Sequence record: NC_007023.1
DNA from: Escherichia phage RB43
Length of the DNA stretch: 64,000 bases
Direction: 5' to 3' (one strand)
A program made the position numbers and the translations under genes. Shown here in pieces: positions 32,034 through 41,891 of this stretch (within the stretch, counting starts at the first letter, position 1; each line of letters begins with the position of its first letter). The notes below the pieces were generated by a model. That model saw only the letters and a list, made by a program, of their open reading frames with translations, did no database searches and was not told the origin of the DNA.

Positions 32034-32422
32034 AATTCATATTGTGCGCGAAGGATAGCGTACAGGCTACCTATGTGGATCGTGTCTACCGGACACTGGA
32101 ACATATCACTACGCATCATGTTAAACTCAATATCGTTCTGTTCAACGAAGTTGCCGATCATTGATGTCCAGCCCATCACCAGGTTATAGCCGTCCTCCGA
32201 TAACCCGTAAGCCAGCTTAACCATGATACAGCGTTTATCAGCCAGTTCTACGCGCATATGGGTACTGCTATGCGTGACCTTGCTGGGGAATCTGCGGAAC
32301 ATCTTGGTAAGGAGTTTAGCCGTTTCAATATTGAACGCCAGTTCTTGATCCTTACTAACCTGATTATCATGACGACGATCCAGGTATTTTTTCATCTTAG
32401 GGTTAGTGTTCACATGTTGCAT
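32018..32422 (-). CDS. hypothetical protein (134 aa)
   Basis: ORF. Confidence 0.45.
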   Translation of the reverse strand: MQHVNTNPKMKKYLDRRHDNQVSKDQELAFNIETAKLLTKMFRRFPSKVTHSSTHMRVELADKRCIMVKLAYGLSEDGYNLVMGWTSMIGNFVEQNDIEFNMMRSDMFQCPVDTIHIGSLYAILRAQYELWDMK

Positions 32423-39087: not shown

Positions 39088-39621
39088 TTATTTTTTCCGT
39101 GGAGTCGGCACGATTACCTTTCCGTCAATTTCAATCTCCATATATGCGAAGTTGAACATAGCCATACAGGAAACGGCTTCATCCGAATCATTAGTGTACA
39201 TAAGCTCAAGCTCTCCCAGGTTGGAGGGCCAAGCACCATAAAAGCGAAATGTCGCCACAGTTTTTGATTGCGAGTTATCCAGGATATGCAAAGCCATTGC
39301 CTGTTGTGATTCACTCCATCGAATAGATTCGAAGGTGTTAAAATCGACGGTTCCAAGCATCCATAGGTAAACACCAAGATAGGATCGCAATTCTTCATCA
39401 ACAGCAAACCGAATAGTTAACGGATCGAACTCCATTGCTGAACCAGGGATCTTACTACGGATCATTGGGTTCAAGGGTGCATCCGTAATCGGTATTTTGA
39501 TAGATGGTAGTGTAACACCCTGAACCTGTAGTTTCAACCCTTTCATGTAATCATTATCAGGAATGTCTAAAAGAAAGTTGGTTGGTGAAATTTGGTTCAG
39601 GATCATAGCAGTTGTATTCAT
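39088..39621 (-). CDS. 3: tail completion and sheath stabiliser protein gp3
   Basis: 177 aa (T4 ~176); exact late promoter TATAAATA upstream; synteny 3-1-57A. Confidence 0.7.
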   Translation of the reverse strand: MNTTAMILNQISPTNFLLDIPDNDYMKGLKLQVQGVTLPSIKIPITDAPLNPMIRSKIPGSAMEFDPLTIRFAVDEELRSYLGVYLWMLGTVDFNTFESIRWSESQQAMALHILDNSQSKTVATFRFYGAWPSNLGELELMYTNDSDEAVSCMAMFNFAYMEIEIDGKVIVPTPRKK

Positions 39622-39643
39622 AACATGATCTCCGTTTATAGAT

Positions 39644-39651
39644 ATTTATAA
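39644..39651 (-). promoter_or_regulatory. T4-type late promoter (TATAAATA) for gp3
   Basis: Exact TATAAATA on minus strand ~25 nt upstream of gp3 ATG. Confidence 0.55.
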
Positions 39652-39660
39652 CCAAGACCG

Positions 39661-39830
39661 TGAGCGAAGCGAACACACGAACGAAGTGAGTGTTTGGTAA
39701 CTCAACTACAGAACTACATAATTATATTTTAATATTTTATATATAGAGAAAAATGTAGTTTTTGGTATACTTTTTGTACAGATGTTAACTATCCGTCTTC
39801 GCTTCGCTTGACGGAACTCGCTTCGCTCGT
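39661..39830. repeat. long inverted repeat (GAGCGAAGCGA / TCGCTTCGCTC arms) enclosing an AT-rich core with internal palindromes
   Basis: gagcgaagcgaac at 39662-39674 pairs with cgcttcgctc copies at ~39798-39828; core holds ctacat/atgtag repeats. Confidence 0.5.
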
Positions 39831-39903
39831 AACCTTGAAAAAGTTATTGATCAATTCAATAAATAGGTATATCATACCCATACTTTCAAAAGAGATTGAA
39901 AAC

Positions 39904-40512
39904 ATGAAATCATTCAAAGAACTTATTTCTGAATCTGTTCAGAACAAAAAATTTGCAAAGACAGTTGATCTGGTTGACCGTGGTAATGCTTCAAAAGGTC
40001 AGATCGGTTTCTTACACTTCGCACATGGTGCTGACTACGATGTGTATGCTCCTGATTCTCACGATCTGGCTTACTTCGGTAAAGGCGTTGTTCGTTTGAA
40101 AGGTAAAACCACTGGCAAAACTCAGGCTGCTTATGTTGACTGGGCGAAAGGCACGGTTTCATTCTACAGCGGTGATCCTGCTGATGACCTGAAATTTGAC
40201 AAGCCAGCAAAATTCAAAGGTGCTTCCCTGTACAAAGAAGCGGAAGAGAACATTGATCTGTATAACCAGTTAGCGGAAGATTTCGAAATCGATCTTCCTC
40301 TGGATGAAGCGCTGGTGAAAGGCGGGATCTATAAACTGCCGAGTAACGATATGCACTTGCTGTATACCGGACGCACCAAAACCAAACCAACTGGGGAATA
40401 TGCGGTATTCACTGTTGTTGATGCTTCTGGTAAACCTCGTCTGGTATCCGGCGCACGATTCACCCAGGAATACAAAGGCGACGTAGTAGCCAAACTGGAA
40501 AAAGTCAAATAA
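39904..40512 (+). CDS. hypothetical Lys-rich protein (~202 aa) inserted between gp3 and gp2
   Basis: Start at MKSFKEL (ATG 39904) with near-consensus late promoter AATAAATAGG upstream; strong terminator downstream. Confidence 0.55.
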   Translation: MKSFKELISESVQNKKFAKTVDLVDRGNASKGQIGFLHFAHGADYDVYAPDSHDLAYFGKGVVRLKGKTTGKTQAAYVDWAKGTVSFYSGDPADDLKFDKPAKFKGASLYKEAEENIDLYNQLAEDFEIDLPLDEALVKGGIYKLPSNDMHLLYTGRTKTKPTGEYAVFTVVDASGKPRLVSGARFTQEYKGDVVAKLEKVK

Positions 40513-40513
40513 A

Positions 40514-40548
40514 AATAAAGCCCCTTCCTTTCGGTTGGGGCTTTTTGT
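40514..40548 (+). terminator. rho-independent terminator
   Basis: aaagccccttcctttcggttggggctttttgtt. Confidence 0.6.
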
Positions 40549-41402
40549 TAATATCTGTTCCAGACTTTTTTTGCCGAGAACGGTTTTCCTTTCGACACAA
40601 ACGCCTGTGTAGGCAACCAGACAGCTTTAGCCCAATCTTTCGGGGCTATTTCTGCAAGTGGTGAACGCAAATGGGCTGGTAGGTAGACTTTGATCATTTG
40701 ATCAGCCCCGCGCATTCCTTTTACGTTGTTCCAGTTGATTTTCAATCTGGTTTTGTTTGAAAGGCGATCCGTAGATCCGTAACCGCGTTTCAAGAGTTCT
40801 TCTAAGAATTCCTGTCGTGCTTTCGGTGGCGCATAGTGCAAGTTCAATCCATATAGAACCACGTTACCCGCTTTAGAACGTCCTGAACCCAGGAAGATGA
40901 TTAGCGGGAACCGATCCCAGTACGGTAGGGTGTCTTTATACTTCGCGTCATACACGAACGTATACAGGCGACCTGTTGCTGGTTTCGCTACCCTGTGCGT
41001 CTTGATACTGGTTTTGATGAAGTCACCAAACCATTCAGTCGATTCTTTCTGACGTTTCGCAGCGGGAACACCAACTGTAATTTTCCTTAAACTGTTTCGG
41101 AAATCGTTGATGATGTCAACCGTATGTTTTTTGCGATAGTCGTTACGTTTTCGTCGGGCTTCGGTTTCTGCCGTGCGTCGTGCGATTTCGTCATCAATTT
41201 GCTGTTTGTAACGGTGCATCGACTTCGTGAACGTCGCATATGCAATTCCGTTATCGTCTGCGAATTTTTTGGCTGTCATGCCTTTTAATTTTGCGCGTCG
41301 GAATTTAATACCAATCTCAACCCATTCCCCCAGCTTTCGCTTCGGTGGCGGTTTTGGCTTATCTTCTTCTGCGATGATCTCGAATTCAAATATAAAGCTC
41401 AT
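40548..41402 (-). CDS. 2: DNA end protector protein gp2
   Basis: 284 aa (T4 ~274); basic; synteny 3/2/4/53. Confidence 0.7.
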   Translation of the reverse strand: MSFIFEFEIIAEEDKPKPPPKRKLGEWVEIGIKFRRAKLKGMTAKKFADDNGIAYATFTKSMHRYKQQIDDEIARRTAETEARRKRNDYRKKHTVDIINDFRNSLRKITVGVPAAKRQKESTEWFGDFIKTSIKTHRVAKPATGRLYTFVYDAKYKDTLPYWDRFPLIIFLGSGRSKAGNVVLYGLNLHYAPPKARQEFLEELLKRGYGSTDRLSNKTRLKINWNNVKGMRGADQMIKVYLPAHLRSPLAEIAPKDWAKAVWLPTQAFVSKGKPFSAKKVWNRY

Positions 41403-41423
41403 AATTCCCTCCGTTTAGGGTAT

Positions 41424-41891
41424 TTATTGCCCTTTCCATCCGAACACACGTTTTAACGTATCTTCTGTGATGATTTTAAATTCCCAGCCCTTTTGCTTCG
41501 CTGCTGTGTTCGCTGCTTTCCATTTGTCAATGTTCACTGCATAAGTATACAGGGCATCGACAAATTTCTTTTTGTTGTGAACATTATTGTTCGCTGGTTT
41601 AGGCGGGGGCAATGTTTCTTTCATTGGCTTGACTTCCCATAGGTAAGTAACGCCATTATCCATTTCAACATAAAAATCCATGAAGTAACGCCGTCTTTTA
41701 CCGTCTGCGTTGCTGAAATATGGGATCACTACCTCTTCACTGTTCCAGCGTTTTACATGCGGGTTTCTATCAAGCCAGTTCATGATGTATTTTTCCCAGC
41801 TTGAACGATACGTTATCTTTCGCGGATCGCCTTTATATTTTGATATGTTCTGGGGCATAAAAGACCCCTTGTACGTCTGTCTTCCAGCCAT
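41424..41891 (-). CDS. 4: head completion protein gp4
   Basis: 155 aa (T4 ~150); divergent from gp53. Confidence 0.65.
   Translation of the reverse strand: MAGRQTYKGSFMPQNISKYKGDPRKITYRSSWEKYIMNWLDRNPHVKRWNSEEVVIPYFSNADGKRRRYFMDFYVEMDNGVTYLWEVKPMKETLPPPKPANNNVHNKKKFVDALYTYAVNIDKWKAANTAAKQKGWEFKIITEDTLKRVFGWKGQ

Follow-up and report, generated by a model that had tools for sequence, protein, structure and literature searches.

The T4 replication origins oriE, oriF and oriG sit at transcription strand switches and have no common motif. oriF and oriG each consist of a MotA promoter and an AT-rich unwinding element, and a minimal T4 origin comprises about 100 bp. According to the T4 rep_origin features, oriF lies at the start of uvsY, while gene 34 contains oriG, at a distance of about 2.2 kb from rnh, and gene 5 contains oriE, some 3.4 kb away from gene 3. 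The primer RNAs of oriE and oriG are antisense to late genes. GC skew in T4-type genomes follows the direction of transcription and so would not single out origins. RB43 has neither a motA orthologue nor a T4-type middle promoter consensus (Nolan et al. 2006), and MotA is also absent from KP15 and from the many therapeutic relatives of these two among the Klebsiella, Enterobacter and Cronobacter phages. A different kind of intergenic element, the promoter-early stem-loop (PeSL), is numerous in RB49/phi1-type phages, where it is found in hyperplastic regions beside ORFans, with GGGG/CCCC terminator stems and at variable loci (Arbiol et al. 2010, PMC2839356).

We analyzed a stretch of 64,000 nucleotides (the window) that matches Pseudotevenvirus RB43 at 100% identity to HE981739.1; a window position equals the HE981739.1 record position minus 63592. 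In T4, genes 3 and 2 are neighbours separated by a gap of 106 bp. In RB43, gp3 (tail tube terminator/tail completion; 39088–39621, minus strand) was recognized by a match to phrog_45 tail tube (E = 3.5e-41), a weak Pfam match to Phage_T4_gp19 and the gp3 annotation in RB16, Miller and KP15. The gene for the DNA end protector gp2 (40548–41402, minus strand) matches phrog_429 with E = 1.2e-71. A preliminary description of this locus had reported that a 202-aa gene breaks the T4 order 1-3-2-4, which is correct against the T4 gene order, and all the features it named lie where it had placed them. By motif and sequence reading, gp3 has a perfect T4-type late promoter TATAAATA on the minus strand (39643–39650), 21 nt 5' of its ATG, and this promoter adjoins the left edge of an element of about 170 bp. 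The start of gp2 is preceded by AATAAATA at about 41421–41428, 18 nt upstream.

The intervening gene (39904–40512, plus strand; CCL97661.1, phrog_7322) encodes a protein of 202 aa with 25 lysines (12.4%) and a pI of 7.8. This protein has two beta-rich domains with no assigned function, belongs to a tiny, phage-only family and gave no significant Pfam, NCBIfam, PDB-sequence or known-fold match. Orthologues occupy the gp3–gp2 interval in all Pseudotevenvirus, in Slopekvirus (KP15, 74% identical) and in the distant Morganella phage vB_Mm5 (35% protein identity). RB43 carries a short allele without the C-terminal module; EcRAM01 also has a short allele, and long ones exist as well. The GC content of the gene is similar to that of its flanks. 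A TTG start at 39808, which would give 234 aa, was rejected; conservation of the coding frame starts at the ATG at 39904. Judged by sequence and synteny, the gene is vertically inherited in the RB43/KP15/vB_Mm5 branch of the Straboviridae. It is no recent addition but a long-standing, syntenic, predicted late gene whose C-terminal modules are exchangeable, and RB43 has lost its module.

T4-type late genes combine a gp55 promoter, TATAAATA, the octamer of which occupies −13 to −6 shortly upstream of the gene, with an intrinsic terminator. The 202-aa gene resembles them in that its predicted promoter region (39835–39875, plus strand) contains the octamer AATAAATA at 39858–39865, 38 nt before the ATG, with seven of eight positions matching TATAAATA. 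This octamer occurs three times in the 64 kb (both strands), one of them before gp2, and the first position of RB43 late promoters is usually A or T. The form (A/T)ATAAATAG is kept in nine orthologues, EcRAM01 and vB_Mm5 have a perfect TATAAATA, and a late-promoter-like motif stands before every orthologue of the gene. The near-consensus late promoter proposed in the preliminary description is credible, given the octamer shared with gp2 and its retention in the nine orthologues and vB_Mm5. Unlike typical T4 late genes, the RB43 gene has an overlapping sigma70-like sequence (TTGATC-17-TATCAT, 39847–39875), in addition to a −35-like TTGAAA at 39835–39840; the overlap suggests that the gene may be expressed early as well. 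The strong terminator said to follow the gene is also real, and it is bidirectional. This predicted intrinsic terminator (40517–40549) is common to the convergent 202-aa gene and gp2, folds with −17 kcal/mol (z = −4.2; none of 200 shuffles folds as well) and is followed by a T run and preceded by an A run, as expected of an intrinsic terminator on both strands. Its sequence is identical in Lw1, and the KP15 annotation places a terminator on both strands. A simple terminator scanner passed over it owing to an internal bulge. Transcription of the 202-aa gene would start at the gp55-type late promoter, possibly also at a weak sigma70 promoter, and would stop at this terminator.

The element between gp3 and the 202-aa gene (39660–39829) is one of three paralogues identified by BLAST and alignment. 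Its left arm (39660–39692), purine-rich on the plus strand, contains unit A, GAGCGAAGCGAA (39662–39673), and unit B, CGAACGAAGTGAGTG (39678–39692). The left inner words (39704–39719) include a direct repeat of AACTACA at 39704 and 39712, and AACTACAT at 39712–39719 forms the left half of a dyad whose right half is ATGTAGTT (39753–39760). The dyad encloses a 33-nt AT-rich core (39720–39752) with the near-invariant TTATATTTTATATATAGAGAAAA. The right arm (39793–39829) comprises a CCGTC..GACGG mini-hairpin and two inverted A units, TTCGCTTCGCT (39798–39808) and TCGCTTCGCTC (39818–39828). The inverted arms, the AT-rich core and the inner palindrome that had been noted earlier were all recovered: GAGCGAAGCGA (39662–39672) and TCGCTTCGCTC (39818–39828) are complementary at 11 of 11 positions, the core has 18–20% GC versus about 45% in the flanks, and CTACAT/ATGTAG is found at 39714–39719 and 39753–39758. 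A third near-copy of the arm word is present at 39799–39809, and a second inverted arm pairing covers 14 nt at 93%. Allowing one mismatch, the arm word occurs three times in the 64 kb, all within the element, compared to a chance expectation of 0.81; a count of at least three was reached by 5 of 100 shuffles. In every copy of the element the GC-rich arm words GCGWAGCGA and CGAACGWAGTGAG stand in inverted orientation, with 3–4 occurrences of arm words A and B and 2–3 of the inner words per element. Sequence reading revealed no convincing DnaA or IHF boxes in the element. TAACC, which RB43 has to either side of the element, was considered as a target-site duplication and rejected: on the left it does not adjoin the element, and the orthologues lack it.

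Folding of the inverted repeat had been suggested as a check. The element is more stable than its shuffles, with −50.2 kcal/mol (z = −3.4) as RNA and −25 kcal/mol (z = −2.55) as DNA, but the excess is moderate. A single long hairpin formed by the outer arms was dismissed as the principal feature, since paralogues vary in the right arm and RB16 carries its two units in swapped order. The inner dyad, with 8–9 pairs and a loop of 31–33 nt, reaches −5 to −9 kcal/mol with DNA parameters.

The element recurs elsewhere in the genome. A BLAST search of the window copy against the rest of RB43 returned paralogues at record positions ~32161–32323 and ~137973–138141, which are 81% and 77% identical and share its plus-strand orientation; the 64-kb window itself contains no further copy. 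By the RB16 annotation the three junctions are rnh|55, gp3|ORF (the 202-aa gene) and gp24|uvsY. Three copies per genome in the same orientation are found in 60+ Pseudotevenvirus records. Nearly all of the listed records have the element at all three sites; the few with two places include the partial 61.6-kb KKP_3664 record and Margaery, and no clean empty site was seen in the 60+ records. Gene and element are fixed together at gp3–gp2 in about 60 Pseudotevenvirus genomes.

Across the genus the arms and the AT core show little or no variation, and the adjacent sequence is variable. The left arm is near-invariant in nine orthologues and kept in all three paralogues, with EcRAM01 departing within unit B; the right arm is likewise near-invariant in nine orthologues, with a single substitution in EcRAM01. 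The sole departure noted from the core TTATATTTTATATATAGAGAAAA is a 1-nt deletion in the CfP1 uvsY copy. The arm words are essentially limited to the three elements, and the arms are under strong purifying selection. The inner 8–9-bp dyad behaves differently: both sides have changed in six of nine pairs, and 91.9% of cells are paired. Its covariation score is 0.514, compared to at most 0.125 for slid controls, and none of 500 shuffles reaches this value. The extra direct copy of the left inner word covaries too. A given dyad variant is common to all paralogues of one genome, for example AACTACAT in RB43 versus ATGTACTGT in GAP161. Since the paralogues evolve in concert, they must recombine with each other. 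Exceptions to pairing, read on the plus strand, are two T·G (U·G) wobbles, in EcRAM01_uvsY and Mm5_uvsY, and a C·A mismatch in the rnh copies, equivalent to G·T on the minus strand.

Strong sigma70 promoters with 11 of 12 matches face outward on either side of the rnh|55 and uvsY copies. The leftward promoter of the uvsY copy serves no ORF and runs antisense into late gene 24, and it is kept in six phages. A common module, consisting of CACTCACTWCGTTCG, a spacer, TCGCTTCGCTC, 1–6 nt and TTGACY, precedes the outward −35 boxes, read from the right arm and from the reverse-complemented left arm. At the window copy the promoters on either side are late instead of strong early ones, and TTGGTT and TTGAAA occupy its −35-equivalent places. 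An extended −10-like sequence, TGgTAtnnT, directly follows the dyad stem. At the three copies we found no convincing inward or internal promoter of the T4 R-loop layout, only weak, non-conserved candidates.

Beyond the genus, vB_Mm5 has a homologous element at the same three junctions, with a recognizably conserved AT core and with the rnh|55 copy inverted along with its flanking genes. These junctions are occupied in Slopekvirus KP15 by a three-copy sequence as well, which is GATC/AT-rich and unrelated to the element, and promoter sites are clustered there (10 versus 2.6 expected, 7 versus 3.5, and 10 versus 4.2). The preliminary description would have abandoned its interpretation if related phages all carried the gene without the repeat. 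Orthologues without the repeat occur only in Slopekvirus, with another AT-rich three-copy sequence in its place. Since the KP15 orthologue of the 202-aa protein is 74% identical even though the KP15 element is unrelated in sequence, this protein is unlikely to bind the element. The best explanation of these data is that the gene and the inverted repeat are two separate long-resident features, not one inserted cassette.

The mobile cassette footprint offered as one option in the preliminary description does not fit an arrangement that is fixed in about 60 genomes, lacks a target-site duplication and an empty site, and recurs at rnh|55 and gp24|uvsY. The element does resemble a MITE-like or selfish repeat in its terminal inverted repeats, which are of the MITE kind, its small size and its multiple copies, and T4-type genomes are known to shuffle cassettes via repeated promoter/stem-loop motifs, the PeSLs. 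But no flanking direct repeat is kept in orthologues, presence/absence polymorphism was not seen among 60+ genomes, lineages with 202-aa proteins of only 35% identity retain the three positions, the arms are strongly constrained, and the gene is syntenic far beyond the genus with a GC content like that of its flanks. We therefore consider a mobile scar highly improbable. The similarity to PeSLs is limited to the composite of intergenic stem-loop, AT-rich DNA and sigma70-type promoters that is repeated and able to recombine; unlike PeSLs, the RB43 element exists in three fixed core-region copies, rather than in many copies in hyperplastic regions, and has neither a GGGG/CCCC terminator stem nor linked variability. 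A structured RNA, either a small RNA or a leader, encoded by three gene copies and built on the covarying dyad as a stem, is somewhat less remote, if improbable. The RNA fold score, the compensatory stem changes with their two U·G wobbles on the plus strand and the extended −10-like sequence just past the stem would suit such an RNA. By contrast, a search of 39300–40800 against Rfam 15 (E <= 1) gave no match within 39622–39903, the weak matches being confined to the terminator; a 31–33-nt AT-rich loop on 8–9 pairs makes for a weak hairpin; no promoter–terminator pair surrounds the element, and the strong promoters point outward. Moreover, the mismatch in the rnh copies is C·A on the plus strand but G·T on the minus strand, and therefore no coding strand is consistent; nor would a hairpin predict the covarying extra left word. 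The dyad symmetry and an AT-rich centre able to form a cruciform also raise the idea that the element is a hotspot of recombination, a signal for packaging or the site of some other DNA transaction, for example a cruciform cut by endonuclease VII or a place where terminase enters or a topoisomerase acts. Concerted evolution does reveal recombining paralogues, and T4 origins are reported to coincide with recombination hotspots. On the other side, T4-type packaging is described as headful without a defined pac site, and nothing connects the three junctions to the terminase genes. Such a role would be compatible with an origin; we give it a slender chance, slightly below that of the RNA.

A replication origin or a site of promoter control is a likelier identity for the element than the remnant of a mobile insertion, and a DNA-level module of one of these two kinds is the reading we infer. 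The remaining options of the preliminary description, a replication-related structured site or a regulatory element, fit a conserved element whose three junctions correspond to places at, or within a few kb of, T4 oriG, oriE and oriF. In a shared transcriptional control region the arm words, which lie at about −40 to −75 of the outward promoters, would serve a regulator of phage or host origin as operators or activator sites, with no role in replication. Such a regulator, for example a substitute for the missing MotA, would co-ordinate rnh, 55, uvsY, gp3 and the 202-aa gene, and the AT-rich dyad would act as a bending or UP-like spacer. The same arm module before each outward −35 box, the TTGGTT and TTGAAA at equivalent places in the window copy, the promoter clusters at the same Slopekvirus junctions and the absence of MotA from RB43 argue for this role, and the unit swap in the RB16 right arm is easier to reconcile with independent binding sites than with a single long stem. 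However, three sites per 180-kb genome are few for a regulated promoter class, the window copy serves late promoters, which require no upstream elements, and a strict 33-bp AT core with a covarying dyad is superfluous for simple activation. We regard a purely transcriptional role as possible, if on the unlikely side. That the three copies are defined replication origins, positional counterparts of oriG, oriE and oriF that function without MotA, is a tentative proposal to which we assign a little less than an even chance. In its favour are the copy number and fixed positions, the conserved arms and AT-rich core with the covarying dyad, and the outward promoters of two copies, among them the antisense one at uvsY. 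On the other side, the strong promoters do not read into the core, the window copy has late promoters beside it, and no strand switch occurs at gp24|uvsY. The positional fit to oriE and oriG holds only within 2–3.5 kb, and it is confounded by the small number of large divergent intergenic regions. In Slopekvirus the counterparts resemble plain early-promoter clusters, which suit a purely transcriptional role equally well.

How do these candidate origins compare with the described ones? The uvsY copy lies in the uvsY promoter region, exactly in the place of oriF, and another copy lies beside rnh, the neighbour of T4 gene 34, which houses oriG. As in oriF and oriG, an AT-rich segment is closely tied to promoters, in an element of about 170 bp versus about 100 bp in T4. 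In contrast to these origins, RB43 has no MotA and no Mot box, hence no MotA-dependent middle promoter, and its strong promoters transcribe outward instead of reading into the AT-rich segment as in T4 R-loop origins. Because the strong flanking promoters face away, we do not class the element as a T4 R-loop origin but only as a possible functional analogue. oriF and oriG lack arms, dyad and repeated words; the RB43 copies share one sequence, whereas the T4 origins share none, and the element has no sequence similarity to the T4 gaps. With oriE, which consists of iterons and repEA/repEB, the window copy has in common the gene neighbourhood 1-3-2-4-53-5 and short repeated words, and the orphan antisense promoter at the uvsY copy recalls the antisense primer RNA of oriE. 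oriE differs in its location, about 3.4 kb away inside gene 5, and in its direct repeats of 12 nt, set at even distances. By analogy, direct and inverted repeated words around a conserved AT-rich core are reminiscent of iteron-type plasmid and phage origins, where repeats bound by an initiator, usually the product of a nearby gene, adjoin an AT-rich unwinding element, and words that are lineage-specific yet uniform within a genome would be expected if they co-evolve with a binding protein, but the RB43 element has only 2–3 inner words.

The sequences themselves show the copy number, positions, conservation, covariation, concerted evolution and flanking promoters; protein binding, DNA opening and origin activity are what we infer for the element as an origin. 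A factor, probably phage-encoded, would recognize the words of the arms and the dyad words particular to each lineage. Transcription running outward from the promoters on either side would supply negative supercoiling, which would open or extrude the AT-rich core, and the opened core would let the gp59/gp41 helicase and a primer load. More broadly, and as a speculation that may well prove wrong, the MotA-less RB43-type phages may carry an undescribed class of sequence-defined origins at rnh|55, gp3|gp2 and gp24|uvsY, with invariant arms and core, a lineage-specific dyad and a co-evolving phage protein, swapped in Slopekvirus for a GATC-rich promoter-cluster version. A literature search of incomplete coverage yielded no earlier description of the element and no virion proteomics of RB43/KP15-type phages.

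It has been difficult to define the origins of T4, which have no common motif and of which the two understood ones depend on MotA promoters. If the proposed origin function is true, the element would be the first origin of the T4 family that can be recognized from sequence alone. The three copies are a concrete and easily mutated candidate for the start of replication or for promoter control of rnh, 55 and uvsY, and the lineage-specific dyad words offer a natural swap experiment. The picture of the neighbouring gene also changes, from a recent insertion to a long-standing, syntenic, predicted late gene with exchangeable C-terminal modules.

The window is 100% identical to phage RB43, a Pseudotevenvirus (HE981739.1; window position = record position − 63592), and all features listed for the gp3–gp2 interval in a preliminary description are present in the sequence. 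Gene gp3 (39088–39621, minus strand) is followed by an open reading frame for 202 amino acids (ORF, 39904–40512, plus strand; 12.4% Lys in the product) and by gp2 (40548–41402, minus strand), gp4, gp53, and gp5. T4 genes 3 and 2 are neighbours separated by 106 bp. The near-consensus late promoter of the ORF, AATAAATA, lies at 39858–39865, 38 nt 5′ of the ATG; this octamer occurs only three times in 64 kb, once 18 nt before gp2. Gene gp3 has the perfect late promoter TATAAATA. According to Nolan et al. (2006), late-promoter octamers of these phages begin with A or T. Since a sigma70-like site (TTGATC-17-TATCAT) overlaps the late motif of the ORF, early expression to some degree is possible. The ORF ends at a strong terminator (40517–40549, fold −17 kcal/mol, z = −4.2), as described. 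In gp2, residues 4–73 match a PHROG of their own, phrog_32288, annotated as an HTH DNA-binding protein (E = 6.4e-16); the match to phrog_429, the DNA end protector family, spans residues 83–284.

The ORF had been described as an extra gene. Searching its protein by tblastn returned matches in 177 phage records, with homologues in all Pseudotevenvirus (89–100% identity), in Slopekvirus of the KP15 type (74%), and in Pantoea phage Phynn (70%), and weaker matches in Morganella phage vB_Mm5 and Aeromonas phages. Yersinia phage JC221 (62%) was found by protein-database search. The homologues in KP15 and vB_Mm5 likewise lie between gp3 and gp2, convergent with gp2; the gene is therefore old and syntenic rather than extra. 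Each lineage examined has a motif resembling a late promoter ahead of the gene: nine Pseudotevenvirus orthologues keep (A/T)ATAAATAG, EcRAM01 and vB_Mm5 have the perfect TATAAATA, and KP15 has CTAAATA. The family is tiny: a set of 5.8 billion proteins yields 17 clusters, and one of 1.84 billion yields 11 representatives. The protein matched nothing in Pfam, NCBIfam, or PDB sequences. According to the family alignment the protein is modular, with an N-terminal domain (residues ~1–125; invariant H38, H41, D44, D51, H53, and D54), an optional second domain (~135–200), and a linker followed by exchangeable C-terminal modules. The RB43 allele stops after the second domain. In-frame deletions totalling ~180 nt relative to Lw1 and RB16 truncate its C-terminus (40470–40512); the module missing relative to Lw1 is helical and ~59 aa long (AKGIREKVIAVLVKRGFNEKDAEKMVDKNLKDAMKVRPGATPGKLAEIVSTL), and the terminator is intact. 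Proteins of the family swap or stack at least three different C-terminal modules, which results in lengths of 202–344 aa. The ORF is an ordinary conserved hypothetical late gene.

The ~170-bp inverted repeat upstream of the ORF (39660–39829; the element) is real, and it is not confined to this gene: the intergenic sequence has three matches per genome in ~60 Pseudotevenvirus genomes. In RB43, besides the window copy at gp3(−)|ORF(+), copies occur outside the window at rnh(−)|55(+) (record ~32161–32323) and at gp24(+)|uvsY(+) (record ~137973–138141), all in the same orientation and named after RB16's T4-style annotation. Within the 164 kb of RB43 examined, the arm words GCGWAGCGA and CGAACGWAGTGAG are nearly restricted to the three copies, and the corresponding T4 gaps lack them. 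No earlier description of the element was found in the searchable literature. The inverted arms GAGCGAAGCGA (39662–39672) and TCGCTTCGCTC (39818–39828) are perfectly complementary, and a third near-copy lies at 39799–39809; these three matches, all within the element, are the only ones in the window (0.81 expected by chance). From left to right, the element comprises a left arm built from units A (GAGCGAAGCGAA) and B (CGAACGAAGTGAGTG), a 6–8-nt word present once or twice, a 33-nt core holding the near-invariant TTATATTTTATATATAGAGAAAA, the word again in inverted orientation, a stretch rich in T, and a right arm of inverted A and/or B units. The core is AT-rich as reported (GC 18–20%). The left arm (39660–39692), GTGAGCGAAGCGAAC-ACA-CGAACGAAGTGAGTG, approximates a mirror repeat and has ~73% purines on the plus strand, and the right arm is correspondingly rich in pyrimidines.

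Arms and core are invariant or nearly so in the orthologues compared, nine for the window copy and six for the uvsY copy, and the neighbouring sequence is variable; only the arms of EcRAM01 and the CfP1 uvsY core, which has lost 1 nt in TTATATTTTATATATAGAGAAAA, depart from this. The inner dyad words vary by lineage with complementarity kept: AACTACAT/ATGTAGTT in RB43, CfP1, and RB16, ATGTACTGT/ACAGTACAT in GAP161, Banach, Cronuts, and Olmo, ATGTCTAC/GTAGACAT in EcRAM01, and GTACCCT/AGGGTAC in vB_Mm5. Counted over 15 copies, 91.9% of cells pair and six of nine pairs change on both sides. The covariation score of 0.514 exceeds slid controls (≤0.125) and shuffles (0.139 ± 0.034; 0/500 reach it), although these statistics come from related sequences. 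Since, in addition, paralogues within one genome always carry the same variant, the independent events number about four, and the three copies evolve in concert. An additional left word in direct repeat often covaries too, and RB16 has its two right-arm units in swapped order, which argue that the repeats may be recognition words rather than stem halves alone. In the uvsY copy, the right arm reads TTCGCTTCGCTC ... TCACTTCGTTCG in RB16 (stretch L012:3210–3480) and TCACTACGTTCG ... TCGCTTCGCTC in RB43 (L003:10930–11190); this opposite order suggests recombination between related A and B words. A 34-aa "hypothetical protein" annotated inside the element of Olmo (L025:165–269) is probably an artefact, since the conservation pattern is non-coding.

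The element extends to vB_Mm5, whose ORF is only 35% identical to that of RB43. Here it is recognisably homologous (arms CGTGAGCGTAGCGAAC and CACTCACTACGTTCG, core TTTTAATATTATATATAGAAAAC) and sits at gp3|ORF, gp24|uvsY, and 55|rnh, the last copy being inverted along with its flanking genes. The annotated uvsY start of vB_Mm5 runs through the element (L034:12727), probably a similar artefact. The vB_Mm5 record (PP397179.1) starts and ends within the gp3|ORF element (L032:1–40, L033:1394–1433) and has ~40 nt in common between its two ends, as if it had been assembled or linearised at a point inside the repeat. Whether related phages carry the orthologue without the repeat depends on the lineage: vB_Mm5 has both, and KP15 has the orthologue without similarity to the RB43 element. 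The gp3|ORF gap of KP15 is filled by a very AT-rich sequence dense in GATC sites, with TGACGGGGTAA and TTACCCCGTCA as its boundaries, present in three copies exactly at rnh|55, gp3|ORF, and gp24|uvsY (L004:2123–2491, L021:11783–12086, L022:11302–11605). These copies contain dense sigma70-type promoter clusters (TTGATC..TATAAT modules), and all have an ACGGGG word by the left edge.

In the rnh|55 and uvsY copies, sigma70 promoters matching 11 of 12 positions point outward on both sides with the arms directly 5′ of the −35 boxes, so that both sides, read outward, are the same module. The leftward promoter of the uvsY copy (TTGACC-17-TATAAT, minus strand, L003:10944–10972, record ~137943–137971) is a strong sigma70 promoter kept in six phages and has no downstream ORF; its RNA would be antisense to the 3′ end of late gene 24. 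The window copy has −35-like hexamers at equivalent positions (TTGGTT left, TTGAAA right), and the late promoters of gp3 and the ORF appear to serve as its working signals. The origin reading favoured below has as its chief rival an operator or activator module of purely transcriptional function, which we rate somewhat less likely. A structured RNA is unlikely: although the region folds better than shuffles, if only moderately (z = −3.4 as RNA, −2.55 as DNA), the inner hairpin alone is weak (−5 to −9 kcal/mol as DNA). A site for recombination or packaging ranks slightly lower still. The scar of a mobile element, proposed as a cassette footprint, is very improbable, and a miniature transposon-like repeat was rejected: there is neither target-site duplication nor presence/absence polymorphism. 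The promoter-early stem-loops (PeSLs) of RB49/phi1-type phages were also rejected, being many, located in variable regions, and built on G/C terminator stems.

In the T4 record, oriF coincides with the start of uvsY, whose transcript is the primer; oriG is within gene 34, at 2.2 kb from rnh, and oriE is within gene 5, at 3.4 kb from gene 3. Both oriE and oriG have primers that run antisense to late genes. According to the Kreuzer and Brister review, these three origins lie at strand-switch regions, T4 origins have no motif in common, and oriF and oriG consist of a MotA promoter and an AT-rich unwinding element. RB43 lacks MotA (Nolan et al. 2006). Given these positions, this architecture, and the lack of MotA, we tentatively favour the reading that the three elements are the replication origins of this clade. 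A putative factor would bind the words, and divergent transcription would drive opening of the AT-rich core. However, the promoters point away from the core, unlike those of oriF and oriG, the window copy is flanked by late rather than early promoters, and the oriE and oriG positions match only approximately. The element thus differs from T4 R-loop origins in two defining features, promoter orientation and MotA dependence, and resembles iteron-type origins by analogy only. In T4-type phages it would act in cis, as an origin or in promoter control. Since KP15 carries its own sequence at the identical sites, the three junctions are special across the whole clade, and the sequence that fills them is lineage-specific.
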